A stretch of DNA of 64,000 nt from Eremomyces bilateralis CBS 781.70. Taxonomy: Eukaryota. The notes under the pieces were generated by a model. That model was not told the origin of the DNA. It saw only the letters and a program-made list of their open reading frames with translations, and made no database searches. Below, piece after piece: positions 32,557-50,209 of this stretch. The stretch lies in NCBI GenBank assembly GCA_010015585.1, contig ML975165.1; one strand, given 5' to 3'. The position numbers were made by a program, and so were the translations under genes. Position 1 is the stretch's first letter, and every line of letters begins with the position of its first letter.

Positions 32557-33240
32557 GGGCATTGCTTTGTCCAAGTTTCTCCTTCCCATGGCTTATTTTG
32601 TTAATTTCGGACGGGAGGGCGTTTTTATATACCCGGTTGATTGAGTTGTTTCCGCATTTGGCTTGGAACTTTTTATAGCGTTCTTCGTCTAGCATTTTCT
32701 TAGCACGGTATGGTTTTCACACGATCCACGAACTACATAGGTGGGCACGACGGGCGAATCTTTCTCCCACTGTCATTTTCGGGTTTTCACGTTTCACGAG
32801 GTCAGGAGATCATGACGCTGCGAGGCGTGCATAATAACTAATCAGGGAGGAGGTCTAATCGCCGAATGAACCCACAGCGCGTGCATTCATTCGACGTATT
32901 CTATTCCGCGTCATATAGCAGCCAGAAGATAGAGCTAATACCAGCCATCGGCATGTCCCTCCTTCTAGCAAAAGAAACCCCCGGGTCCCAGACACCGGCT
33001 CGGTGCAGCCGACCGAAATGCGTCTTCCAACGACGATGCCATCGTGTAGTATGTGTGTATGTATGTATGCAATGTGTCAGGCGCCCTTTCGGGCATCCAC
33101 CGGATCACAAAAATCCAAAAGAAAAAAAGGCAACGCGAATATTACCGTGATGGAAAATCGCAAATCCTACCCGCTCCCAACGCCGCATGACTCACGCTGA
33201 CGATTCTCCCCAACGATTACCATCCTTCCTCATGATACCC

Positions 33241-35029
33241 TCATGCCCCTAACTCCTCACTCTCCTCCAGCCCCCACTCCCCTCTCACCAACCCCTCGAC
33301 CGCCCTCTTCCCCTCTCCCGTCAACTCCGGCCTCCCCACCGGCGTCACCGCCCCCGTAAAGAACCGCGGCGTCCACTCCCTCCCCGACTCCTTCCGCTCG
33401 GCCGCCTTGGCGCGCTGCCGGTCTTCGATCTCGTGCTTGTGTTTCGTAGCGAGTGCGTACTGCTTGTTGAGGAGGGCGCTGGTCACGGAGGACCAAAAGC
33501 GGCGGGATTCGTTGGAGAGTTGGGAGGGGAGGGGGGGAACGGATTTGGGGGCGGGGAAGAGGGGGGCGAGGTCGGTGAGGAGGTGTTTTTCCTGGATGGG
33601 TGTTAGTTCGATTGCCTATATTAGTATTTATGAGGAAGTGGTAAGGCGACGTACGGATGATTTGGCGAATGATTGCGTGCCGAGGGTGAAGTACACTTTG
33701 TCGGTCCAGGAACCCTCGATGCGTCCGAGGACGTCTTTCTCGGACACGTCCTTCACCCGCGTCTTGTCGTCGTTGTCCGGATCGTACTTGAAGATCACGC
33801 CCTCCACTTTGTTTTGCGTCCGCCCCAGCCAGCCTTCTTCCAAGTATTGCAGGATCGTCTTGATCTTCGTCTTCGCGCAGGTGATATAGCAGGTGTCCGC
33901 GACGCTGATGGTCAAGGTCCCTATGAATCCCGTCAGTAACCAGTTTCGGCGTTTCCTCCCCTGGGTAAGATATGCGGTCTACCTCGTAACAACCCTCCCA
34001 AATGCGCCGCCGGATGCGTCAACTGATACTGCTCGTCACCATGGTTCTTCAACGTGATGAAGATCCCGTAATTATGGTCCCCCGGCATCACCTTCACGCT
34101 CGTCCCCGTGAACTTCGCGCTAATCTGATCGTATCCATTCGCCACGATCCCCTTTTCGGGACACTCGATGTAGAACGCGGATACCGGGGGATGGTGGGAG
34201 GTCTGCTCGGTCAGGAAGGAGACGCGGATGGGCTTCTCGGGTTTGCGGGTCGAGTTGGTGCTCGCAATGCTACAGCCGCGGGAGGGGGCGGCGGCTTGGA
34301 GGACGGGTGGGACGAGCTCGTCAACTTCCCAGTTGCACTGGTAGTGGTTGAGTATGGGTTATTCTAGCGAAGATGCTGGAGCGCTTACTCGGAAGAATTC
34401 GCCTAGTGTGGAATTGTATGGTTTGACGGGTTTGCCTTTGACATATTTCTACCGCTCGTTAGTATCATCCGCCTCATCAATCGATTCGAGGGTTTCGTAC
34501 CAGGTCTTTGGTGAACCAGAACCGCAATGCGGCGAGCATGCGTTCTAGCGGTTCATTTGAATCTCCAATACTATGCGTCGTCAGCACCTGTTCAGCGACT
34601 TCCCAACCATCGAATGCACTGACGCAATAAACGTCTCCGGTCGATCCAAGTATGTCCAGTACTCTGCCCATCCTCAATCAGCATCCCATCTCGCCACAGT
34701 CTCGTTCGGCATACCTAAGTTCGGGGTGGGTTCGAGAAGGTGTGCCGGAAGCGAGAATCGGACGGACGCAAGATCCGCCACGCCAACGAACCTGTTTCGG
34801 GAAGAGATTAGCCTGTGATTTTGCGCTTCGACGGGTTTCTCACGCACCTGCGCAGCAGGCCCATCAACGTCCGCAGCTTCGACGAATTGTCTGGTTCTTT
34901 CTCGGCCGGCGCCGTCTCAGCATTCTCAACCGGTATATCGTCCCCGGGCATGGTGGCAGGAGTGGCCAGATCTTTCTCTGGCGCTGGAGTTGAGCCCTTC
35001 GCGACGGGTTCTGACGCAGCTGACGCCAT
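33241..35029 (-). CDS. Oxysterol-binding protein, Osh6/Osh7-like, multi-exon
   Basis: VRFSLPAHLLEP, KPYNSTLGEFF, TEQTSHHPPVSAFY, KHEIEDRQR..WTPRFF. Confidence 0.9.
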
Positions 35030-35902
35030 GATTTATGTGTGTGACTATCTGTCTGTACTTCGATAGAGAATGGCGGAGTTGATGTTGGACTTTGGAAGGA
35101 TGGATTTTGGTGGGGACGTTTCAGACTCTACACCCCGAAAATTCCCTGGCTTAGAGATCCGAGATAGAAGACTGGGGAGTGGGGACCTCGTAAGTGGTAT
35201 TATGTAGAGCACGATTTGGAAGTTGGAGTGAGATCGAGGAGGAAATGAGGATCAGGGTTGCGCCTTGCGGGCTCAATAATGGTGTCTCAGGTAAGGAAGG
35301 CTCTGGACTATGGATTGATTGATATTGGCCGTTTGAATCAATACTGTGACGTCGAGGACTCTGGGTGGATAATGCGATTCCAATGCCAGAGCAACCCGAA
35401 GCAACGTAAGCAAACGGCTTTTATTGGTTATTTTACGATCGATGACTAGATGAGACACATGGAGATGGTTTCGGTCTTTCACATGGGGACTTTGGGAGGA
35501 GGTTAGGAACCCTTCGCTACTCCGCCATTCCGTTCTTCTAATAACGCGTAATGCGTGCTGGCTAGTATGGACTAGCGAGAGAGGGGCAGTGGGGGGGTAG
35601 GCGGTGGCTTGTCTTGATTCCGCATTCCGGGAAGCACGGCCATCTATCCTCCTCTCCCCAGACATATATGAAGATTATGAACCAATCAGCCAGCCACCTG
35701 CAACAAAGAAAGATGCAGGTTTGCTGGAGCTTGAAATAGCTGAGAGCCTCGTGGTGGTGTCCAATTAAGGCCAGGTTGTGTCTTTGGTGAAGATGCCCTA
35801 GCGATGGCTTACACTGCCCAGGTACGGAGTAACGTTGAGTGCTACAGAAAAGACCTCCAGTTTCTGACGCCGTTCTCTACATCGATCTCCGAGACCATCG
35901 TA

Positions 35903-38066
35903 ATGGGAAGGGGAAACAAGTCGCGCCCCCGCGGCAAACAAGATACGCCACGAGACTCTGCGTACTATAAATCGCTCTATGCCGACGATCTAACCCCAGC
36001 ATTGCGACCTATCACAGACGCAACCGAGAGAGGAGTTGGCTATATGTGGAAGAAGTGGACAAAGTGTGTATTCGCTAGGATTTCCTAGGTTTATGACGAA
36101 CTGTTTATCCCTCTTTGATCAGATACTGTTCGCTCCGAGTCCTTGACCCCGATGCTCTTGCCCGCCTGCGAAACATCAGCGTAGCCGAGATCCGGCGATT
36201 CATGCACTGGTATCTGGACAACCATGCTATGACGAAGCTGAATTCCTTCTATGTGCTGATGCGTTACTGGCGGATGATGTACGCTCGGAAGATATACCAA
36301 AGCCTAGACCTTGTCATCGCTTCGGATATGAAAGACGTAAGACTATGGTTCCGTCTAGAGACCATCTCTAACAGCATCGCTAAGGTATGGTTAGTTCATC
36401 GGCACCGTCCTTAAGAGCGAGTACAGTTTGAGTGAGGGTATGAAAGAGAAGCCTGTCATGAACGTAGACGATGTATACTTACTCCTATACCACCACTACG
36501 CGCTATCGAACGAATACTACGCACACGAGCGGGAGCGGGTTCAGCACAGTTTGATTATTCTCTTCATGATCGGCACCTCTGCAAGGCCGTCGACTCTCGT
36601 CGAAGGGGGCGGCTACTACAACACAAACGAAGGCCTCAAGTACAACGATATTGAGATATTCAAGGTTAGGGATCCAAAACTCCCCTCTCAACAAGTCTTT
36701 CTTATGAGAGTCCGGCTTCGGCTTCTCAAGGGCCTTTGACAGTGACTAGATCAAGCAACGAAAGGACTTGTATACATTTTCTGTCCCACCTCACCTGAAA
36801 AGTGTGCAGCTTCATTGGAAAGAGTCAATGCAGGACATTCCGATTTTCCGGCGATCTGTTTTTCGCGGCGGACAGGTGACCGTATCACCGAATAAATCGG
36901 TTCAGTACATGGATCTCTATTACCAGAACGCGCGACTCGGTAAATCTGCTGGTTTTGCAGATTCTCTCGGGCTATACAGCTATCGTAGAGGCGCCGGTGA
37001 AGCGATTGATTGTAAGGGCACACTCTTACTCCTACGCTGGCAATCTTCTTACATCTGCGTGCTTCTAACCTTTTTGAGGCCTCCCTCGCTAACATCGTTT
37101 CTAGGCGTAGCTGGTTCAGATATGCGGAGCTTTGTGATGGGCCATGCTCGTGCAAGTCTCTTTGAGCGCTATTATCGTAATAGTGTTGTCCAGCTCGATT
37201 CGGTATCCGCGTTCCTCGAAGTGCCTTCGAACGACGCGCTGATCAAACTGGCTGGGCATATGAGCTTAACCCGGGATCCCTCTGCGGCCGACTCTATCAA
37301 TGTCGAGCATTCTGCGGTTGACAGCGACCCTGGTATCCAAGAAACCGAAAAGACGTGCCTCCGGCTTCGGAAAGACCTCATTGAAACTTTTGGGAAGATC
37401 AAGAACGGAACGGGCACGGAGCTCTACGATACGTACCGGCGCGAGCGAAGCCATTTACGCAGCGAGAGGATGAAGGTGAAACGGGCGCTCGAGGAAGAAG
37501 CCCGGCGACAGTATTTCCGGACCGCCGGGACTAGGTATATCGATGAACAGCGACGCGACATCGCGCATGAATATATCGAGTCGAAGCCTATATTCCAATT
37601 CGGGGAACGGGAAAGGCTGGCAGCGCTCCTCTTCCAGAATCGAGATGTTCGGCAAGTATCTGAGGAAGTGATTTACGGGCAGCGCATTGCAGCGATGGAT
37701 AACCTAATCAGCCTATGCGGTCGGCATTTGCCCCGCCCTGCGCCCCGTCGACATCTTTCGTTGCGAGATAAATCTCTAGAAGAAATACCGGAGGAGGATG
37801 AGAAAGATTTTAACCCCGACCTCTTTCCTTTGGTGTGTCCGGGCACCCACTGCCTGTTCTGTCTCGGCAATCAGAGCCTAGGGCCACAGTCTAGAACCTT
37901 CGCGTTTGCTCGAAAGGATGCTCTAAAGAATCACGTTGAGAAGCATTTACGCCACCAAGACTGGTCGAAAGAGCCGGAATGCCCTCACCCGCTCTGCGAA
38001 GAGACTTTGAGCACTGATATGCACTTCAAGAACCATGCGGCACGGGTTCACAACATTTTCTTGTAG
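35903..38066 (+). pseudogene. DUF3435 tyrosine recombinase (Starship captain type) with C-terminal zinc fingers; frameshift and internal stop
   Basis: Introns 36064-36122, 36337-36394 and 37012-37104. Motifs KEKPVMNVDD, HERERVQ, TSARP, LKYNDI, LLKG, PIFR, YSYRRG, MGH..FERYY, SLTRDP, CLFCLG, CPHPLC..HFKNHAARVH. The frame breaks at ~36732 and there is a TAG at 36747-36749. Confidence 0.9.
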
Positions 38067-38716
38067 ATTCCGCGAAATTGCCATTTAAACAGAACATTGA
38101 CCAGCTCTCTAAAGTACCTAGCGAGCACTCGCCGGAAACACGATCCTTTGTACTACTACTATGATAAGCGGGATATCTTCTGCCAACCATACAAGATTTC
38201 CCTGGAGCTTGAAACAAACCTCCAGATGTGAATTTGATTGTGACGTAAGTGCCGCTTAAGCTGAATGATACGAGGGTGCTTGGATCTATTTTCGGCAACA
38301 TCTAGCGCAAAAATGGACTGGTTCGTTGACAGCGGCGCCTTCAGTGGATTTATTTCCTCTCCGTCTCTTCTATGCCGTCTTATTTCCTTTTAATCACAGC
38401 ACCTCATTTTTGACTATCATCCTATACCTGAAGAAGAGTGCTAAGACACATCTAGAGCCTGAAACGAAGCTCCAGATGTGTCTTGGCATCCTTCCAGCCT
38501 ACGCTAAGCTGGAAAAAAAATACTTCCAAGACACAGCTTATTCCACCTTTCTGTATCATTCCAAAGCTCTTTGTTTGGGTCATCACCCCAGTGGCAGCTA
38601 GGCTAGGCAGCGCACAACTATAAAGGGGATGCTCCCCGCCCTCTGCCGTTGACGAGCTACAGATAATGGGCTGAAAGCGGGGCGAGAGCGGACGGTCCTC
38701 GTAACCTTCCAAAACC

Positions 38717-38870
38717 GTGAGCTTTGGAACGCGTACTGGCTGCGGAACGGTACGGGAATGTGAGCTTTGGAACGGTACGGGCTACGGAACGGTACCAGCT
38801 GCGGAACGGTACGGGAATGTCGAGCTTCGGAACGCTCCCTCCTTCCAAACGGGCTCTCCGAAACGGGCTC
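38717..38870. repeat. Array of six GGAACG(GTAC) motifs plus two AAACGGGCTC copies
   Basis: GGAACG at 38726, 38744, 38769, 38786, 38803 and 38829. Confidence 0.85.
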
Positions 38871-39058
38871 AGATCAGGGCGAGCTGGGTGGGAGAGCACT
38901 GGGTAAACTGGAGTGAGTGAGTCGGATAGTGTGGGGTATAGGAGCCCGAATGGCTAGGAGGCCACAAGGACACTGCGGATATCTGGAAGGCAAGAGGGAA
39001 TCAAACTGAGATTGGTCTCAAGCTATAATTGAGTGTAGATAAGTTGGAGCACGAAAAG

Positions 39059-39066
<8 letters not shown>

Positions 39067-39100
<34 letters not shown>
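39067..39100. repeat. (GA)17 microsatellite
   Basis: Perfect GA run. Confidence 0.95.
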
Positions 39101-39103
<3 letters not shown>

Positions 39104-39182
39104 TCATACGCCCGTCTAAACGGACGAAGGGATACACGGCGGTCATTGGGGGCGGTGCTTGGAACCTCGCTGCCTCGCCTAT

Positions 39183-39355
39183 CTCATTGGCCGCCACCAG
39201 TGGGCGCAGGAATTCATGGCACACCGCGCTAGTGAGCCAAGACATACCCCGCTAATCCTTGGGGGTGCATAGCCTAACTTTACCAGCCCCTTGCCTAAGT
39301 TCCCTTCATTGCTGTGCCATGAATAGCTGCGCCCGCTGGTGCCGCTGGCAATGAG
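39183..39355. repeat. Imperfect ~42-bp inverted repeat with ~90-bp spacer
   Basis: CACCAGTGGGCGCAGGAATTCATGGCACA pairs with TGTGCCATGAATAGCTGCGCCCGCTGGTG; outer CTCATTG/CAATGAG. Confidence 0.8.
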
Positions 39356-39524
39356 GCTGGGAATACATGGCTGTGCAGTCTGTTTTAAGCAGTCGTAAAA
39401 CGCAACCAACCAGTTTATGCCAGCAGTGAATATATAAGCGGGGAAACTATTCACTAATTCTGTCTTTGGTGATCTCTCCTATTAATACCACAAATTTTCA
39501 ATCTCGTTGAGTTCCAAGGTCAAC

Positions 39525-41300
39525 ATGTCCCAGCAGTCGAAACCTAGCAATCATCAAGATTGGCGGAAGAATCTCTCCACAAATTATTTGCCCCTACTCG
39601 CGTTGACGCCAGTCTTTGCTGTCGCAATCACTATGTTGTGTCTAGTATTAACGCAATGGCATGGCTCCGAGAGAGTGGCCCATTTTGCGGAAGCGAACCG
39701 AGCAGAAGTTGCAATTGCGGTCCAAGTTATATCTAGCCTTCTTGGTCTACTGGAGATAGCCGTACTATGTATGTGTTTTTGTTATTCTTACCATCAGATT
39801 GCCTAATATCGCCAAGGCGCTATTCTCCGTCTATCATATAGCTGTTATGCTTCCCAAAACCGACTTTCCCTTCGGTCCCTGCAATTTGCATTTGCTGTAA
39901 ACTCGCAGACTTTTACCTGGTCCCTACCATTCATACGGCTTTCCGTTTTGCTCGGATCCATGGCTATCGCATTGCTCCCTGCGGCAATATGGTCAGGTGC
40001 GATTACGCCCATTTCTGTGAGCTACAACAACGTATCCGATATTCAAGTGCCAAGTTTTCGAACGTCGAATGTATCTTCGCTTTGGGACGCGGAACGACAT
40101 TCATCGAGATGGCAGACAGAAAAGGGGTTGTTTTCTTATGACGCGCCAGCTATGAGAGGACTTCTGCTCAACTCGGCCAGCGGAGCTTCAGTTGTCAAAC
40201 CGCAAGACGCGATTCATGCAAAATTGGACAAAACAGGGTTTGTCTATAAAGGTCGTAGCTATGGGATGGGTGCCGCTGCCGGATTGGTCGACCTTATCAC
40301 TGCCGGATCAACTGTTCAAGCCATCTTTTATGTTGACGAAGGATTCGAGTCCGTGGTGTCCTGCCATTACAACAGATCGAGCGCATATCGCCTAGAGCGC
40401 ATGAATAATGTTGGCTCCCTGTACAGCATATATTGGTTAAAAGGATACTATCCCAACGGCGCAAAGGTTCATGTGGAAGGGGAGACAATCTACTCTGCCC
40501 GCAAACCATACGATATTTTCTCATGGGGTGCAGCATATTCAAGACTGGAAAAGGTCATCTATTTGCCGATGGCTTCGCCTGCTACACCTGACAACGATAA
40601 ATGGTCCTTCTCGGAATTTAACGCTACACAATGTGAAATCCGGTTCACGCCGCGCAGATTTAATGTCGAAGCCAACTATACTAGTAGCGAAATTCGCGTT
40701 ACACCGGGATCAGATATTCCATGGCCAAACTACTCGGACGCAGTGATTGAAAAAATCAGATACTGGCTCTGGGCCATGTCTTACGTTGATGGCGGCTTTG
40801 GCGGATCTCAACTTGGTCGATCGCTCCGACTTAACGTAGACAAGCTGCAAGCATCAAGGAACATATCTGAGACCACCACGATGCGTGCCATCGAGGATTA
40901 CGTCGCGTCTTTGGTTGACAATATCCTTATCGGACTTGTCTCTACGCGGATGATTGTCGGCAATGAGAGTGCTCCTGTGAGCATGCGAGTTACGGCTCCC
41001 GCTATGAAACTCGGAGATTTGAGATTCATCATTGGAGTCTTCGCTATGAATCTCATGCTGTTGCTACTGTACTGCGTGGAGGCGTTGCGGACTCGTTTTT
41101 GGGGAAAATGTCCCGATGTTGATTTATTCGACTTGACTGGATTGGTAAAGGGGATTTCTGATGGAAGCTTGCTGATAACACCTGACTCTGAAAACGATCA
41201 TCAACGCCAGAGCTTTGACCTATGGGTCTCAGTACTTCCTAATACTGATGCCGAAACTGAGAACGCAAAGCTGTTGGACCGTATCGTCATAGATGGCTGA
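39525..41300 (+). CDS. Uncharacterised membrane glycoprotein, ~575 aa (intron 39769-39816)
   Basis: TATATAA at ~39431; the GTATGT..CTAAT..AAG intron keeps frame with the 450-aa ORF; three N-terminal and one C-terminal hydrophobic segments and several NxS/T sites. Confidence 0.8.
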
Positions 41301-41544
41301 GGTCGGAATGTTTTAAAGTTAGCCGGCTGGTACTCAGATCCGGTAACAAAGTACTTTATGCCTCATTGATTTGATCCAAAACACTTTTTTGCGATGGGCT
41401 CTGCCCTATCCGGGTTGCCATTCAGATGTTTGTCAACGTTCGTGAGCTTGATCTTAAATCTTTCTTGTTTGATCAGCCTGGCCTGAGTGAAGTCTTTTTC
41501 TGCTAGATTCTTCCATGGCTGTTTGTCTCTGACCATTTTACTGC

Positions 41545-41919
41545 CGAGCAAATTCCAGTCTTTAGAAAAGAAATCAACGGCTTTGGGGCGATAAGCTCTT
41601 GAAGCGTCCAGCCCCTGGAGAACCATCTGCTCTTCCGCAATGACACCTCCCATGGCTTAGCTAGCGGATGAGGGCGAGAGAGTTTGAACTTGTAGACGCC
41701 GGAGTTCCCTTCTCTTGCACCCTCGTTCACCACCTCTCCTGCTAGCCATGGGAAGCTCTCGTATAGCTGACGGAGGTCCTTGGATAAGGTATCGATGATG
41801 GGTGAGGGATCGGGAGAAGCTGCGGTTGGGTAGAAGAGTGAGATTTGCGTATATAAAGTCGCTAAACCTGGTTGTTGTCCGAAGATATCAAGCTCGCCTT
41901 CAACGCATTGGGTAGTCAT
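41545..41919 (-). pseudogene. Chimeric remnant: TRI101-like BAHD acetyltransferase N-terminus fused to a HET-protein fragment
   Basis: LDIFGQQP..LYTQISLFYP..FPWLAGEVVNEG, then SRWFSRGWTLQELIAP/KAVDFFSKDWNLLGSK with a 1-bp frameshift at 41585-41588. Confidence 0.8.
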
Positions 41920-42869
41920 CGTCACTGTGTCCGTTCCTATATCATTAGTCTTCTAGAATCTAGGCTTTTTCTTGATGAGATGAAAAATATTTGCTCGTAG
42001 TTTCTCAATCCTCGGGGTCATATATATACTTCCTATATGAACTCGCAACCCCCAGGGAAAAATTATAGTCTCATTATGATTCATCTACAGGATGCAAACT
42101 GCAATCACAGAGCCCTATTGGTGCTTATTATTATTACCTCGGGCACTTGATTGTGTTCCAGAGGTGAGTGGTAGGCCTTGATCGTGTTCCACGCTCCGTG
42201 TAAGGTGTTTGGCTTGTTAGCAGGACGCCCATAAGTTACATGTAGACCACCTGTACCAGATGATACCCCTCATAGCTTTATTCTCGATTGACCTTGAAAG
42301 CTATTAAAAGATTTTTATTTTATCCAGGGTTACACAAGTTCTGGGGCGGTGGTGGGTACCTTGGTACCTTTGTTGGGCGGTGAGTGCCTGCTGGAGGTGG
42401 CAGGTACCCGTGATAGAGGGTAGCTCCGCGAATAATATGCGGGTGCCTGGCTACAGGCTCTTGACAAACCTGTGCCCGCTGGCTGGAGACTAGTTATCAA
42501 GTGGCAACCAATACCTTCAGTGTTCTGACGCTCATGGGTTCCACGGTCTCCAGGGCTACCAGCATAGGGCCGTGCTTCCAAACAACGCCAAACAACCTCG
42601 GAACACCCCCGGAGCGATTCGATTCGCCTCGTAGCGATCCAGGGCCCAGACAATGCGGTTAGTCGTTCGTATATGCACTGGAACTTTATCTTCGCGACCG
42701 GCTAATGGGCCTGCCTTTGTGATTAGCGAACTTTAGAATGATCGTGCAGCTTTCGATGACCGAGGAAAAAATGTTGGGCTTTGTTGCCAAACTACGATTT
42801 GCTGCCAGATTTGATGATTTTGCAGTGAACGGGAAATTCTAGACTAGCTACCAATAAGTAGACATGTGT

Positions 42870-44275
42870 CTGTGCACACCCCCGAAAATCACCAAATCTG
42901 ATCGCCATACACCGTATCTTGAGATACGCTGAAAAACACATACAAATGCAAATTCAGTCTACTTTTTTGATTTCTTAATTGGGAAATATCTAATATTTCG
43001 TATGTCACCCTTTTGCCTTGATTACCGCCTGTAGACGTCGCGGAATTGAGTCGATCAGCTCTCGGACCGTCTCCTGCGGGATCGCCCACCACGCCTCCTT
43101 TAACGCCGNNNNNNNNNNNNNNNNNNNNNNNNNNNNNNNNNNNNNNNNNNNNNNNNNNNNNNNNNNNNNNNNNNNNNNNNNNNNNNNNNNNNNNNNNNNN
43201 NNNNNNNNNNNNNNNNNNNNNNNNNNNNNNNNNNNNNNNNNNNNNNNNNNNNNNNNNNNNNNNNNNNNNNNNNNNNNNNNNNNNNNNNNNNNNNNNNNNN
43301 NNNNNNNNNNNNNNNNNNNNNNNNNNNNNNNNNNNNNNNNNNNNNNNNNNNNNNNNNNNNNNNNNNNNNNNNNNNNNNNNNNNNNNNNNNNNNNNNNNNN
43401 NNNNNNNNNNNNNNNNNNNNNNNNNNNNNNNNNNNNNNNNNNNNNNNNNNNNNNNNNNNNNNNNNNNNNNNNNNNNNNNNNNNNNNNNNNNNNNNNNNNN
43501 NNNNNNNNNNNNNNNNNNNNNNNNNNNNNNNNNNNNNNNNNNNNNNNNNNNNNNNNNNNNNNNNNNNNNNNNNNNNNNNNNNNNNNNNNNNNNNNNNNNN
43601 NNNNNNNNNNNNNNNNNNNNNNNNNNNNNNNNNNNNNNNNNNNNNNNNNNNNNNNNNNNNNNNNNNNNNNNNNNNNNNNNNNNNNNNNNNNNNNNNNNNN
43701 NNNNNNNNNNNNNNNNNNNNNNNNNNNNNNNNNNNNNNNNNNNNNNNNNNNNNNNNNNNNNNNNNNNNNNNNNNNNNNNNNNNNNNNNNNNNNNNNNNNN
43801 NNNNNNNNNNNNNNNNNNNNNNNNNNNNNNNNNNNNNNNNNNNNNNNNNNNNNNNNNNNNNNNNNNNNNNNNNNNNNNNNNNNNNNNNNNNNNNNNNNNN
43901 NNNNNNNNNNNNNACCGCGCGTCGAGAGACGCGAAAGTTGCGCGCGATTTCAGTCTTTGGTTTCCCATCTTCAACAGCCTGAATAATCCCAGCTCTTTGA
44001 GAGACTGATAACTCCTTATTAGGCCTTCGATTACTACTAATTTCTGTGCCAAAAGACCTCATTTTGGTAAAGTTATTGATTGTCCAAGTAAGTGGTGGGT
44101 GTAGAGATATCAGCTGAGACTGGGGTCTGTGCGCAGACTCTTGGCTTAGTACTTTAGTAGTAGATGTGATATTGCTGTAGTAGCGTGCCACTTAATCTAA
44201 TTTAATGAGAGCTCGCAAAACCAGGAGTTTTGATGAGATTTTAGGCTTTGAACGGTGACTTTTGCGGAGGAACTG
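42870..44275 (-). mobile_element. Tc1/impala-like transposon; transposase 44062->42990 interrupted by the assembly gap and a premature stop
   Basis: N-terminus MRSFGTEISSNRRPNKELSVSQRAGII..EIARNFRVSRRAV (HTH); C-terminus LKEAWWAIPQETVRELIDSIPRRLQAVIKAKG*HTKY; TIR TA|CAGTTCCTCCGCAAAAGTCACC at 44277-44254. The left end is approximate. Confidence 0.85.
43109..43913. other. Assembly gap (805 N)
   Basis: Run of N. Confidence 1.
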
Positions 44276-44451
44276 TACCGGTAGTTAGGAGTGAAACCCG
44301 GGCGCAAGTGAGGTTCTTATGGGTGGGCAGACCAAACGCGGTATCACGACAATTTCAAAGACAAACTGAGCATGAACTTAGTTATTGAAACCGTTCGACA
44401 AAAGCGCTAAATTGTCCAACATCCAACATACATCCATATCACACACTCTAT

Positions 44452-46298
44452 CTACAACTTCGCCTTGTTTTCCTTCTTCGCCGCCTCCCTCAACTCCCTC
44501 CTCAAGATCTTCCCTACTGTGCTACGCGGAATCGCCTCCATGTACACGACCCCTCCTCGCAGCTGCTTATGCGGCGACAACTTCGAAGCAATAAACTGCT
44601 TCACCTCCTCCTCGCTCAACTTCTTCCGATCCGCCACGACATACGCCCTCGGCGCCTCCGTTCCCTCAAACGGCACCCCAATAACCGCCGCGTCCTCAAT
44701 AAACGGATGGCTCAACAGCAATCCCTCCAACTCCGCCGGCGCCACCTGCAGCCCCTTATATTTAATCAGTTCCTTCTTCCGGTCCGTCACGTACCATAGC
44801 CCGTTGCGCTGTTGCAAGATGTCGCCGGTGCGGAACCAGCCGTCGAGGAACGCTTCCTTGGTGGCCTCGGGGTTGTCGTGGTAGCCTTTGGTGATTGTGG
44901 GGCCGCGGATGATCGCTTCGCCAGGTTGGCCTTCGGGGACGTCTTGGTCGTCGTCGTCGACGAGGCGCAGCTGCATGTTGGGGTGGATGGTGCCCACGCT
45001 GCCGGTGGTGTCGGTGAGTCCACGGGGGAGGGAGGTGACGGAGCCGGTGGCCTCAGAAAGGCCCCAAGTGCCCTGTGTTGTGCATTGTAAGTAACTTTCA
45101 CACCTCACGTTACTGATATAAATCAGAATAGGGGACAGGACTTACCCCGACGGACTTCGATCCATCCGCCAGCTTCTTCTGCGATCCGGTCTGCACAAAG
45201 TCATCCATCGGCGCCGCGCCACCCAACCCGCCCTCAAACGACGCGAACTGATCCGTCACGTCCGCCGACTTCGCGATGCGCGCATAAATCGCCGGCACGG
45301 AAAAGAACCCGGTGATCTGGTGCTGCTTGTTGTACTCGAGGAACTTCTTCCACTCGTACTTGCGCATCCAGTAGAGCGACGTGCCGCTGTAGACGGGGCT
45401 GATGAAGTAGCCGCTCACACCGGCGATGTGCGCCGCGGGGAGATGCGCGATGGTACGCTGCGGTGAGGGGATGATCTCGCCGGACATGACGCGGGGGAAG
45501 GCCCATTCGCGGGCGGCCTGGCTGGGGTTGTACGTTGAGGCGACGACGTTTTGGTGGGAGAGTCGGACACCTACGAACAGTTAGTCGCCGACGAGAGAGC
45601 GAGAAACAAACGCAAATCCTCACCTTTCGGCGCCCCCGTCGTCCCCGAACTATACAGCAAAATAATCAAACTCTCCTCCAACCTCACCGGATCCGTCACC
45701 CGCTCCCACATTAACCGCTCCTCCGTCCACCCTCCAAAACTCCCATCTACACTCCTCATCCCCCACTTCCCCGCATCCGACTCCAGCACCAGGACCCGAT
45801 CCAACCCCAACCCACAGATCCCCGCCGCCTCCACCGCCACCTCCACCAAATCCGCACTCGTAATCAACAGCTTCGCATCCCCCTGCGTCACCTGGCGCGC
45901 CAGCTCCGCCGGTGTGAAGCTATGCGACGCCGCGCTGAAGACGCCACCGGCGGCGACGGTGCCATAGAAGGCGACGGGGAGGAGGATCTGGAGGCTGGAG
46001 AAGCCGACGACGACGTCGTGGTTGGGGCCGGCGGCGCCGATCCCGAAGCGGGTGCGGAAGGCGTGAGCAAATTGCTCGGTGAGGGAGATGGTGGTGGATT
46101 TGGTGAGGTAGTTTGACGGGTTGGCGGCGTCAATGTGGAGTTGGGTGTCGGGTTGGGAGAGGGCGTGTTGGGATTCTGGGGGGGTTAGGATTTGCTAGAG
46201 ACGTGGATACGGGTGGTGGGGATACCGAAGAGAAAGGTCAACATGTCCATCTGCGGGAACGCGTAGTATCGCTCGCCATAGTAGATTTTCGGTGCCAT
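44452..46298 (-). CDS. 4-coumarate-CoA ligase-like acyl-CoA synthetase, peroxisomal (PTS1 AKL)
   Basis: YSSGTTGAPKG, WGLSE, WFRTGD, DRKKELIKYKGLQVAPAELE, KQLRGGV, GKILRR; C-terminal AKL. Confidence 0.92.
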
Positions 46299-47454
46299 CT
46301 TGACTATATATATCCTGATATTTGGAGTAGATCGACTAAGGAAACGCTGAATATCAACCAATTGACGACAGAAGACTGCTAGCACAAAGACACTCTAAGA
46401 CAAGGCCCGCAAAGAGGATGAAAAGCAACCAGGACAGATACAGCAAGTTCTAGATCGCCTACAGAGTACTATGTAAGTACAGAGGCGACCCGACCACCTT
46501 AAGTTCTGGCTTCTGAAATTACCGAAATATACCGGAAACAGTTAACCGGAGCCGCTGCTCATATTGCTAGCATTTTAGCGCCATAACAAGCCTACGAGAA
46601 GTCGAGAACCTCGCTCGTTGATGGTGGGATTGGTCGCTTGGATGGTTAATTTGAGGGGTCTCTCCACGTCCTCGGCTCCATCTTGGACGCTTGAGAGCCG
46701 AAATCCGGGGAAATGTGCGGCGGAATCAGCGAAGGTGGCTTGGAAATTGGTGATGGGCCAATGGCATCGTCGGGAATGAAATGCGTACCGTGGTACTTGG
46801 GTACATGCGGATCCCGATTCTAGGAGTGGTGCAGTTATTTTCGTACATAGGTGCCCACACTCTGTCCTCGTTGCAGCAAGGCGCTCGTCTCAAATTGTGT
46901 GTGAGAAACCGAGAATCAAAGACCTTCAGTCCTCTCCACCAAGCCAAAGCCGGAAGAGTGGCATCTACCGTCCGTATGCAAACTTGCAAAAAACCCAGCA
47001 AAGTCGTGTTGAGAAACGCTGTGAGGGACCATTCCGCCGACCACGAAAGGCGTATCGCAAAAAGAGATACGCTGGCGTGTCTCCATCTATACCAGTAGTA
47101 GTCGATCTAGAGGAATCTTTCGACACACCAACAAGCCAGCTTCGCGTCCCTCCATTCCATAGTAGTCAAACAATGCTTGTAATCCGTAGTACAGAGAGTT
47201 GAGTATTGGACTCAATACTGCTCATTCCGTTTTTCTTCGATATCGTGGACGTTCTGCCTTTTTCGATATACCCTCCATGAAGGCCACCGATCGCTCTAAA
47301 ATCCCTCTCGGATATCTACCGCAACCGCTCACTTCCATTTACCAAAGCTCGAGGCCTAACAGCCATCGCGATTATCGTAAAGGCCCAGTCGATGACATCG
47401 AGTGGTGATTCTATTCAGGGGTCCAACGCGAGCCAACAGCAACGGAGAGTGTTC

Positions 47455-49035
47455 TCAGCCCAACCCGCGTCGGTTCCGCCTCATAATCTGCTCAATCGGC
47501 TCTAGAATCCCCGTGTTCTCCGCCCCCAACGCCTTCCCCTTATCCCACCCCATCTTCCTCAACATCGCATGCCCCTTACTCTCCGTCCCGATTTCCGGCG
47601 CGTCCGCCCCGATGACCTCGCCGTGTCCGTAGGTCGTCGGCGCACCGGCGCGGACATTGGTGCTGTCCTTGCTCGGGCCGGCACGGTCGCGTTTGATGCT
47701 CTTGGGTCCAATGGGGCGGCCGAGGACGCGGTCCATTTGCCGCTCGCTGATGGAGAGGGAGTGCGCGGTCTTCTTGAGGATGGTGAAGCGCTTGTTGCCT
47801 CCGCCGATGGATTTGGAGACGAGTTGGAGGTGGTGCGCGTAAAGATGGACGTTACGGCGTTGGTCGGGGGTCATGGGCGAAAAGGCGTAGCTGCGAGTGT
47901 GAGAAGGCGTCGGGGGCTGGATGGCGTGTACATACCTCTCATCGCCGGAGCGGATGAAGCTGCGGATCTCGTCGCGGATCTCCGTAATGGTCTTGCGGAT
48001 GATGACTTTGTCGGCTGCGGCTTTCGCTTTCTTGCTCTTGCTCCCAAGGAGCCCTTCCGCGCGAAGACGTTCCCGCTCCTGTTTCCTAGCTTTCTTCTTC
48101 ATCCGATCGTTCGCCCAGGCCGATTGCATTTCTTCGACCATCTCGTCGTCGGCGAGGTCGATCATGCCCTGGTAGCCCGGGAAACCTTTGGACTTCTTCT
48201 TGTTCCCCAGGCTCGGGCGGTTGAAGTCCGTGATGTCGAAGTCATCGATGTCGTCGAAGTCATCGTAGACATCACCTGTCTTGGCACTGGTGAATTCGGC
48301 AGCTTGAAGTCGCCTCGCGATCTCTTCGTCATCGATAGTCTCCGAGTGCGCGGTATCTGACTCATCGTCCGACTCTTCCGGTTCATCTGGGTCGCTATCG
48401 ACGATGACCTTGGCTTTCCCTTTGACGGAGGCAGTTCCATTTATGGAAGCAGTTCCATCGACATTAGGTCGGTGGGTGGAGCGAACATCACCGGAAAGAT
48501 CGGGGACTCCTTGGGTCTTATTGACATCGCTATCGGAGTCAGGCATGTAGAAGACATCTTGGTTGCCGTTGTGGTTGTCGATGTCCCGAGAAGCGAAGTT
48601 CGATTGACCCATCATGTAGGCCAGGTCATCCGCGTCCATGTTTTCCACGTAGTCATCGACGACCGCCTTCCGATTCGCCTTTTCTTGTTCCATAGCTTCG
48701 AACTCGGCGAGCATGTCAGTATTCTGTAAGAGGTCTCGTGGGTTCACTCGCTTCCCTGTCTTCGGGTGGTAGAGGTCACTCTTCTTCTTGTTCCACCCGA
48801 TGCCGGGCTTGCTCCGATGCTCCCATCGCTCCAGGTGATTCATGACATCCCACTCGTCGTTCAGCTTGTTCCTTTTGTGGGGTGCTAATTTTCTGAGCGC
48901 TTTCACCGAAGGAGTAGGGCTGGGTGGACAGCGACCCTCGAAGACGATCTCCTCACTGCCGGATGATGAGGCAGGAGAAGGAGACCTCGCTGGCTTCCCA
49001 TGCTTACTTCTGGCGTGTTTCTCATCAGCAGCCAT
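47455..49035 (-). CDS. SQS1: R3H + G-patch protein, Sqs1/Pfa1-like (intron 47891-47935)
   Basis: PMTPDQRRNVHLYAH..SKSIGGGNKR R3H; SKGHAMLRKMGWDKGKALGAENTGILEPI..GLG G-patch. Confidence 0.8.
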   Translation of the reverse strand: MAADEKHARSKHGKPARSPSPASSSGSEEIVFEGRCPPSPTPSVKALRKLAPHKRNKLNDEWDVMNHLERWEHRSKPGIGWNKKKSDLYHPKTGKRVNPRDLLQNTDMLAEFEAMEQEKANRKAVVDDYVENMDADDLAYMMGQSNFASRDIDNHNGNQDVFYMPDSDSDVNKTQGVPDLSGDVRSTHRPNVDGTASINGTASVKGKAKVIVDSDPDEPEESDDESDTAHSETIDDEEIARRLQAAEFTSAKTGDVYDDFDDIDDFDITDFNRPSLGNKKKSKGFPGYQGMIDLADDEMVEEMQSAWANDRMKKKARKQERERLRAEGLLGSKSKKAKAAADKVIIRKTITEIRDEIRSFIRSGDERYVHAIQPPTPSHTRSYAFSPMTPDQRRNVHLYAHHLQLVSKSIGGGNKRFTILKKTAHSLSISERQMDRVLGRPIGPKSIKRDRAGPSKDSTNVRAGAPTTYGHGEVIGADAPEIGTESKGHAMLRKMGWDKGKALGAENTGILEPIEQIMRRNRRGLG

Positions 49036-50209
49036 GGGTGGCGGGTGATGAATAAAGGGATAATTGCTTGATGATTTGATGGTTCTTCCACTCTAAAATG
49101 TAGTGCTTCGTTCAGAGTGTTTGCAAAGGGTGTGCTTTCTGAGGGCTGATGTGCTTTCTAAGAAATTCTGAGGAGGAGGAGTAGAATGGATTATTAGGAG
49201 GGATTTATAAATGCGAAACAACAGAAAAATAAAATCAGAGGCCCCGCCTTCCTAATTCGATCGCCGAGACAAACCACTCATGTGACAGGCTATTGGATTG
49301 GATAATTGGAAAACTTTGGTCGCTATACGGACGGAATTTCAGACCACCGAGCTTCAGTAATATGGGTTGCGCGGTTGATGTTGAGTTTGATATCTTTTGA
49401 TATTTTGGAAGTTGAAGATGCCTGTCAAGCTGCAGTAGAAACGACGCTGATTGGACCACGCAGAGTATACAGACGTCCGTGCGTACGAGGCGTTAAGGCG
49501 AATAGGCGATTAGGCATTGAGGCGACAAGGAGGTTACTTTACAGGGAACGCAGCGGAGTTCCAATTCAGCTCAGCTTGAGTGAGTGGGTCGTCGATGTGG
49601 CTTCATAATTCCATCAGTTCATGCTCTCACACCGCTCTGCTGCGCTGGGAAATCTGACAAGAGACTGGGCAAACGGGAGAGCAAAAGACTAAGCAGGCTG
49701 CACGATTCGAACAAGAGAGGAACCATCTGCATAAGAAGCCGTAGTCTTCAGATCTGATATCAACAGGGTGCTCAGGTCGTCTCTCGATCCACTTCCCTGA
49801 GATCCCCAGTCCAAAGGGGAGCCCCGCCATTCAGGGATCGTTTGTTGGACCACCCAGCTGCAGTTACGTACAGCGTCTCAGGCCTGGGCTTTCGCTGTAT
49901 CAGGCGGACACCTTTGCCCCAACCTGTATACCGGTATGCACCTCCGAACAAAGCCTACTCCGTCACTGCTAATTCCTTCAGCGGTTTGATGCACGATACC
50001 TACCTGTTCTTTAACGATTCCAGTCCCCTACTTCCAATCCCATCCCTCCCACCGCTGACTCACCCGCAACCACCATCCCACTATAACGATCTGAACTCCG
50101 ATCTCCCTCCATACCCCCCCCTTCAGCCATACTGGACGCCCTCCTCCAAACCCTCTCCGCCAGGCTCCTCGACCTGCGCCGCAACCCTCCCCCCCTCTCC
50201 TTCCCTACC

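Follow-up and report, generated by a model that had tools for sequence, protein, structure and literature searches.

A probable remnant of a Tardis-family Starship with a broken captain gene in a gene-dense region of Eremomyces bilateralis CBS 781.70

The window considered here is the whole stretch of 64,000 nucleotides from the fungus Eremomyces bilateralis CBS 781.70 (contig ML975165.1 of assembly GCA_010015585.1), and its subject is a block between two host genes that begins with a DUF3435 tyrosine recombinase gene, the kind of gene called the captain in Starship transposons. We think that this block is a degraded, immobile remnant of a Tardis-family (fam03) Starship, internally or 3'-deleted, and we give this reading a probability of about 0.68. 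The Starship origin proposed in an earlier reading made from the DNA letters (the sequence-only reading) is supported by the listing of the gene in fam03 together with the presence of TACGGAGTAA exactly at the boundary of similarity between captain copies. What is new here is the 5' end at 35823, where the similarity boundary coincides with the published Tardis repeat. The identification of the DUF3435 gene as a Tardis-family Starship recombinase is already published and is not new; with the captain already catalogued, the gain is modest but concrete.

The 5' end was located by means of assembled contigs from four public runs, which were placed on positions 33000–47000 at a likeness of at least 80%. 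Two of them (X1 and X2) are DNA runs of the same genome, containing 92% of the sampled words of the window. Run X3 is labelled RNA as a guess, and it was treated as RNA-derived because its contigs skip the introns of the neighbouring oxysterol-binding protein (OSH) gene at CT..AC; these contigs give neither strand nor level of expression. Run X4 comes from a related organism, with coding matches that are 81–90% identical. Contig depths were used only to show that several different contigs exist, not as copy numbers. Many different contigs lie on 35823–38068, with up to 7 X1 contigs differing at one single position, and several captain copies are covered by RNA-derived contigs. All four runs lose the similarity right before 35822/35823 (2, 2, 1 and 3+3 contigs in X1 to X4), and the contigs of other copies, both in X1, X2 and X3 and in X4, match the window only from there to 38066–38068, which is 0–2 nt past the captain stop codon. 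The left boundary is occupied by a short repeat:

35823–35832, plus strand: upstream direct repeat TACGGAGTAA, 5' end of the putative element, placed by the similarity boundary and the published fam03 repeat

At 35823 the window reads cccagg followed by TACGGAGTAAcg, and the 9-mer TACGGAGTA has one occurrence in the 64-kb window, at this position. By our own arithmetic, about 0.5 exact 9-mers are expected per window on both strands, and the chance of finding one within a base of a pre-fixed boundary is about 1e-5; the boundary at 35823 had been fixed from the contigs before the Tardis repeat was known from the literature. Tardis is described with a conserved direct repeat of 9–11 bp, CTACGGAGTA / TACGGAGTAG, and TACGGAGTAA is both the repeat and the target site of Tardis h1 (PMC12153272). 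Table S7 of the starfish study gives tacggagtaa as an upstream and tacggagta as a downstream repeat of fam03, and it contains TACGGAGTAA as the upstream direct repeat ('DR, up') of fam03 elements in at least 29 occurrences (PMC11162782). The repeat/target motif of the Tardis family, TACGGAGTA(A/G), is thereby matched exactly at an independently found boundary. Moreover, the captain ATG lies 80 nt inward of the repeat, both are on the plus strand, and the captain, pointing inward, comes first among the genes. On the combined evidence of motif and boundary, 35823 is taken as a genuine Tardis-type Starship 5' end, which displaces the left end at 35506 given in the sequence-only reading.

Two further observations concern this junction. 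Between the repeat and the ATG, at 35859, an in-frame insertion of 9 nt (AAAACGGAG) is present in some other copies; X1, X2 and X3 each have a single contig with it, and X4 shows it as a loose end. In addition, one RNA-derived contig (33000–35999) runs unbroken from the spliced OSH exons across the element's 5' end and up to 35999, and therefore transcripts cross the host–element junction on one strand or the other.

The captain and its lesion are laid out as follows:

35903–38066, plus strand: captain (DUF3435 tyrosine recombinase) pseudogene, delimited by Pfam, tblastn of the paralogs P0003 and P0004, and contig joints
35903–36063, 36123–36336, 36395–37011 (broken) and 37105–38066, plus strand: approximate captain exons
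36728–36749, plus strand: lesion, a deletion of about 107 bp at 36733/36734 after the catalytic Lys codon (36728–36730), with a frameshift and two stops

Two open reading frame (ORF) pieces on the plus strand match the Pfam family DUF3435 (PF11917), 36395–36739 with E 1.7e-13 and 36750–38066 with E 6.9e-52, in agreement with the family assignment that the sequence-only reading had drawn from motifs. A protein search matched the captain ORF to the public model P0001 (655 aa) of E. bilateralis CBS 781.70, which itself fits PF11917 with E 1.1e-64. DUF3435 was the only family matched in the Pfam search of the captain, and the DUF3504 domain of Crypton-type recombinases was not found there; a search of solved structures with P0003 gave no significant match (best E 0.87). 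The ATG at 35903 opens a protein start MGRGNK, as in P0003 and in P0006, and the intron joints 36336>36395 and 37011>37105 (GT..AG) are seen in X3 contigs. In an alignment of 26 sequences the conserved columns are, in P0003 numbering, R209, K257 (nearly invariant), Y375, R378, H417 and Y427. The catalytic set of captains is R-K-(H/Y)-R-Y, with Tyr at the His position in HhpA (PMC10104507), and the conserved columns, with residues assigned by alignment column, fit this set. The terminal zinc fingers of the sequence-only reading are retained as Cys/His motifs, with a C-terminal consensus QCxFCxGD...RHxxxxHL...CPxPxC...FKxHxxxxH conserved across the 26 relatives, though no Pfam zinc-finger model was matched. 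In the starfish tables (PMC11162782) the gene is erebil1_475428 (Tables S3/S4) at scaffold17:208026-210285, which corresponds exactly to window positions 35804–38063 (2,260 nt). Its fam03 class comes from Table S4 (represented by erebil1_192051), and family 3 is Tardis in Table 1. The same source (PMC11162782) counts 15 recombinases in E. bilateralis, 4 of them fam03, and 0 delimited elements, the last because the species is represented by a single genome. Besides the gene on scaffold17, Table S3 places the fam03 members at scaffold3:974626, scaffold5:1105199 and scaffold20:286362.

The lesion was found by following the paralogs through the window with tblastn. The window copy tracks P0004/P0003 in one frame to ...RVRLRLLKG, ending at 36733, and is again aligned to the paralogs from 36732, in the next frame, beginning with AFDSD. 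The loss after LLKG amounts to about 35 codons (KRDKGLPIKVVFCERDDNLAFCAILQVFGLAFADD, roughly 107 bp). The first frame is closed by a TGA at 36737–36739, and a TAG stands at 36747–36749 in place of the paralogs' Trp (TGG>TAG). The same gap appears in the Pfam profile, which the window copy matches at positions 1–79 and 123–415 only, with positions 80–122 absent; the paralogs cover it continuously (P0003 1–415, P0004 2–404). The lost block is conserved in the 26-sequence alignment, and the deletion starts right after K257. All catalytic residues are still encoded (TSARP, LLKG, YSYRRG, ERYY), but not in one reading frame, since the lysine is cut off from the others by the deletion, the frameshift and the two stops. 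Undeleted paralog sequence is found on loose ends at 36732/36733, in same-genome DNA contigs and in RNA-derived ones, and therefore the deletion is specific to this copy. The public model P0001 bridges the two frames with an intron at 36680–36749 that discards LLKG and its lysine; this intron is not among the contig joints listed (15 of 28). Whether one takes the deletion with its frameshift or the model that skips the lysine, no working recombinase product is expected. Judging from the reading frames, the captain is inactivated and would be unable to act as a recombinase. The spliced recombinase gene of the sequence-only reading is in this respect only half right: its motifs TSARP, LLKG, YSYRRG, MGH, ERYY and SLTRDP are all translated, but there is no intact spliced gene.

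Gene models of this family call for some caution. P0001 starts at an upstream ATG (35804), outside the region common to the other copies, and both this upstream start (35804–35902) and the 70-nt intron 36680–36749 look like annotation artefacts. In P0003 a His stands at the near-invariant Arg378 column and the C-terminal Cys/His part is absent, and P0002 and P0004 are truncated models; from their sequences, the other three fam03 models of E. bilateralis also look defective. In the model P0006, a homolog from Geoglossum simile, nearly the same block of conserved positions (up to profile position 122) is missing. Repeat-induced point mutation was considered as a cause of decay and rejected, the indices being unremarkable (TpA/ApT 0.6–1.0).

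The block and its flanks comprise, besides the captain, the following features:

start codon at 35029, minus strand: OSH gene, left flank of the block
38069–39480, no strand assigned: single-copy stretch without convincing ORF, no Pfam and no Rfam match
39525–41300, plus strand: intact gene of a membrane protein (P0017, 575 aa), 100% identical to a public protein of this fungus
41363–41952, minus strand: chimeric pseudogene, TRI-like acetyltransferase N-terminus plus HET C-terminal end, with a frameshifted HET tail
about 42848–44160, minus strand: nested multi-copy Tc1/mariner-type transposon, with HTH_23 / CENP-B_N on its N-terminal piece
stop codon at 44452, minus strand: AMP-binding acyl-CoA ligase gene, right flank of the block

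Core genes are found on both sides. To the left of the block lie genes for a prenylcysteine lyase, a Vps4-like AAA ATPase, an IQ/CH-domain protein, an importin, a zuotin-like J protein and an SPX-RING protein, and then OSH; to the right lie the ligase and then a G-patch/R3H protein, Atg4 and a 2-oxoacid dehydrogenase E2. Therefore, anything foreign is confined to 35030–44452, and the footprint of the element is 35823–44452 at most, about 8.6 kb. The G+C content at third codon positions (GC3) is 0.70–0.82 in the adjacent core genes (0.77–0.81 in the ligase), and it is below these values in the captain (0.47–0.65), the membrane gene (0.49) and the acetyltransferase fragment (0.54). Much of the locus description in the sequence-only reading is confirmed: a block between two host genes, OSH and the acyl-CoA ligase, in a gene-dense core region; a DUF3435 gene at its left edge, pointing inward; and, behind it, a membrane gene (identified here as P0017) and HET/acetyltransferase debris (identified here as a chimeric ORF at 41503–41952, minus strand). 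That inventory was incomplete, the nested Tc1/mariner-type transposon having been overlooked.

Apart from this transposon and the captain region (35823–38068), the remainder of the block shows single-copy cover, 38137–42806 included. The P0017 gene has two exons with one intron at about 39770–39816, its cover is single-copy and an X3 contig spans 39836–42112. The protein belongs to no Pfam family, and the nearest Atlas clusters, to be taken as a lead only, are Ascomycota hypothetical proteins, some with DUF3176. Its relatives are scattered over Dothideomycetes, Leotiomycetes and Eurotiomycetes at 41–63% identity. In the chimeric ORF the front matches a TRI-like acetyltransferase N-terminus over about 63 residues (E 9e-16), and the tail corresponds to the end of a HET domain with a Pfam E of 0.014, below the cut-off. 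A protein search with the chimera gave 38 matches, most of them unnamed, 21 being acetyltransferases of 443–500 aa and 17 carrying PF06985; no parent gene from E. bilateralis is among the named ones. The Tc1/mariner element has weak terminal inverted repeats in an alignment and is present in many nearly identical copies in the runs of the same genome, with as many as 15 different contigs at one place; its ends were placed from unique contigs that stop at 42880 and start at 44127. A run of 805 N lies inside it (43109–43913), and at either edge the run is crossed by read contigs. X3 is without cover at 42340–42806 and the N bin is covered by no run; nothing was inferred from either.

The stretch 38069–39480 contains hairpin-like repeats at 38202–38230 and 38433–38494 and an (AG)21 tract at 39060–39101. 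Two related hairpin motifs lie at 38202–38230 and 38452–38480. The near-palindromic hairpin 38433–38494 has arms of 26 nt that are 85% complementary, and a matching piece of about 50 nt stands directly after the captain stop in another copy (joint 38066>38488, opposite strands); this hairpin is possibly a 3' signal that copies of the captain transcription unit have in common. A single 896-nt X3 contig spans 38144–39039 end to end, with no ORF, Pfam or Rfam match, and this segment may be a non-coding RNA or an untranslated region. A 17-nt tandem array, GGAACGGTACGGGCTAC x2.8, at 38769–38815 is rich in CGG/TACGG and recalls the Tardis repeat. Finally, an inverted repeat at 39192–39344 (32 nt, 88% complementary, 89-nt spacer) lies about 180 nt upstream of the membrane-gene ATG. 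A 13/16 match, at 39187, to the downstream terminal inverted repeat (TIR) of the Tardis-family element of A. sydowii overlaps the left arm; this match was judged to be due to chance, with no direct repeat after it.

In the reading that we prefer, a Tardis-family Starship would have integrated 794 bp upstream of the OSH start codon. Its 5' end at 35823 and its inward captain are retained in the left 2.25 kb, and the deletion of about 107 bp and the change from Trp to a stop have disabled the captain. The sequence 38069–44452 would be the remainder of the cargo after an internal or 3' deletion, the 3' recombination site having been lost or mutated beyond recognition, and the Tc1/mariner element would have been inserted later into the remnant. 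The latter would now be fixed in place, with the surviving membrane gene behaving as an ordinary accessory gene. The sequence-only reading had spoken of an unusually compact or internally deleted Starship. Internal deletion fits best and the small size stands as an upper bound, but a compact intact element is unsupported because the captain is broken, neither a 3' repeat nor a TIR is seen, and the proposed cargo is single-copy. The element measures 8.6 kb at most, below the 15 kb of the starfish size rule (which is a filter and not biology), and 38137–42806, single-copy as it is, is not shared with the other captain copies.

Several results weigh against a Starship remnant with cargo. The assignment of the block right of the captain as cargo is inferred from adjacency, composition and absence in one relative, and we put the membrane gene being surviving cargo at about even odds. 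The best named relative of P0017 is from Tothia, another Dothideomycete, at 59–61% identity, which fits vertical descent of a resident gene, and a captain stands beside distant P0017 relatives in 0 of 3 metagenome loci, on contigs of only 3.6–5.9 kb. To the right of 38068, only the hairpin piece of about 50 nt near 38440–38488 is common to other captain copies. Other results speak for cargo: the block adjoins the Starship end, its genes have a low GC3 in common, its gene fragments have no parent of E. bilateralis among the named matches, and in X4, where matches to OSH and to the ligase are at about 83–86%, almost nothing corresponds to 38137–42806 at a likeness of at least 80% (depth 3.3 in one bin and 0 in the other nine). 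On the opposing side again, no clean empty site is present in the X4 contigs, where OSH is near the end of a 7.4-kb contig, the ligase is on a separate 23-kb contig and captain copies are on two further contigs; the 9.2 kb adjoining the X4 ligase match nothing in the block. The motif TACGGAGTA has also been proposed as a transcription-factor site (PMC12153272). Downstream on the plus strand no 3' direct repeat was found, only look-alikes at chance level: TACAGAGTA at 46460, beyond the ligase, has at most one mismatch, sites with two mismatches lie at 38776 and 44263, and the window holds 11 matches with at most one mismatch vs 7.3 expected. The search for a TIR of the element's own (reverse complement of 35823–35920 against 38069–50000) reached a best score of 23 with a shuffled maximum of 28, and the A. 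fumigatus TIR gave 0 matches with up to 3 mismatches. Besides, a generic repeat search over 34000–46500 showed no bounding direct or inverted repeats, and the 30-nt 3' flank of a paralog copy is not present in the window. Rfam over 33000–47000 gave no match at E <=0.1, and therefore there is no 5S rDNA or tRNA target in that range.

These results bear on three other explanations. The captain could have arrived alone, as an insertion of 2.3–3 kb from 35823 to about 38068–38500, into resident accessory DNA that already held the membrane gene and the debris. The confinement of copy similarity to 35823–38068 in both organisms would follow directly, the similarity pattern of the membrane gene fits vertical descent, its distant relatives are captain-free in 3/3 short contigs, and the starfish authors allow for a movement of 'solo' captains without cargo (PMC11162782). 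Nevertheless, no repeat motif was found at 38068 by reading the sequence or by repeat search, a limit 2 nt past a stop codon looks like coding-only conservation and less like a transposon end, the fam03 elements among those listed in starfish Table S7 are all at least 24.7 kb (PMC11162782), and the captain and the membrane gene have a low GC3 in common. We consider an insertion of the captain alone unlikely, although it deserves to be kept in mind. That no mobile DNA is involved, and that one member of an ordinary host DUF3435 paralog family is decaying in place, seems to us extremely improbable. The copies do have only a transcribed or coding part in common and several are covered by RNA-derived contigs, but a family-specific Starship repeat coincides exactly with the similarity boundary, fam03 is published as a Starship family (PMC11162782), and the flanks differ among copies and between both organisms.

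A natural miniature, non-autonomous Tardis-family Starship would have kept both ends, with a usable 3' site and paralogous captains acting in trans. Its right end would lie before 44452, or at CTACAGAGTA (46459–46468), in which case the ligase would be cargo (10.6 kb). In its favour, the 5' end is intact, undeleted paralog captain sequence is present in RNA-derived contigs, and real elements can have a downstream repeat with one mismatch, such as tacggggta in starfish Table S7 (PMC11162782). Moreover, the engineered mini-Hephaestus transposes, and a frameshifted captain was complemented in trans (PMC10104507). Yet the match at 46460 is at chance level, the GC3 of the ligase is core-like and its X4 counterpart is as similar as that of OSH, no TIR was found, and the annotated paralogs look defective themselves. 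Nothing at the locus requires this explanation, which we regard as very improbable, and a published account found in a search for miniature, non-autonomous, derelict or cargo-less Starships describes, in the passages covered, only the engineered element. If it were true, the engineered mini-Hephaestus would have an equivalent in nature, well under the 15-kb floor of annotation.

The degraded remnant that we favour has some practical meaning. In a Dothideomycete, a fam03 captain has its 5' end marked by the Tardis repeat TACGGAGTAA. Therefore, the motif combined with the point at which copies diverge can be used to delimit 'solo' captains at their 5' ends in single-genome species, on which starfish cannot work. 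The locus also shows what may be left of a Starship in a gene-dense core: a dead captain, a possible cargo gene, fragments and a later transposon, all in about 8.6 kb. In addition, the public model hides the lesion behind an invented intron, and counts of 'intact' captains made from such models will be too high.

The closest known systems are the Tardis-family Starships (Tardis h1 of Aspergillus fumigatus and those of other Aspergillus), which have the same fam03 captain class, an identical upstream repeat TACGGAGTAA and, likewise, a captain that is the first gene and points inward. The differences are also clear. Described fam03 elements are 24.7–113 kb (PMC11162782) and Tardis h1 averages 81.7 kb (PMC12153272), whereas the present element is at most 8.6 kb. 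The captain model starts about 480–700 bp from the repeat in three Aspergillus examples (PMC11162782), against 80 nt here. The Aspergillus Tardis TIR (agtctgcggtgacggcg and similar) was not found in the window, where, unlike in Tardis, the captain is broken and no downstream repeat was found. The host here is a Dothideomycete, whereas all 29 occurrences of the motif among the Table S7 rows listed are from Eurotiomycetes (PMC11162782).

An inactive copy left in the genome is also what is described for degraded Starships and solo recombinases (Gluck-Thaler et al. 2022; Gluck-Thaler and Vogan 2024). Solo recombinases number 10,212 vs 559 delimited elements, and many of them are expected to be pseudogenes; starfish discards elements of less than 15 kb, the smallest kept being 15,020 bp (PMC11162782). 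In the Derelict regions of Macrophomina the cargo is kept and the captain is absent, whereas here the captain and the 5' end would have been kept, with most of the cargo and the 3' end gone. The engineered miniHephaestus (Urquhart et al. 2023; PMC10104507) also holds a captain and one cargo gene in less than 10 kb, and its transposition means that small size alone is no bar to moving. It differs in being man-made, with 3,820 bp of 5' flank, 1,902 bp of 3' flank and a captain that works or is complemented (PMC10104507); at the present locus no 3' end is seen. Cryptons are likewise compact fungal elements with a tyrosine recombinase and short direct repeats at their ends. However, CryptonA recombinases carry DUF3504, whereas the window gene is DUF3435, and CryptonF is the outgroup to the Starship recombinases in the published tree; the window gene is classified inside fam03 (PMC11162782).

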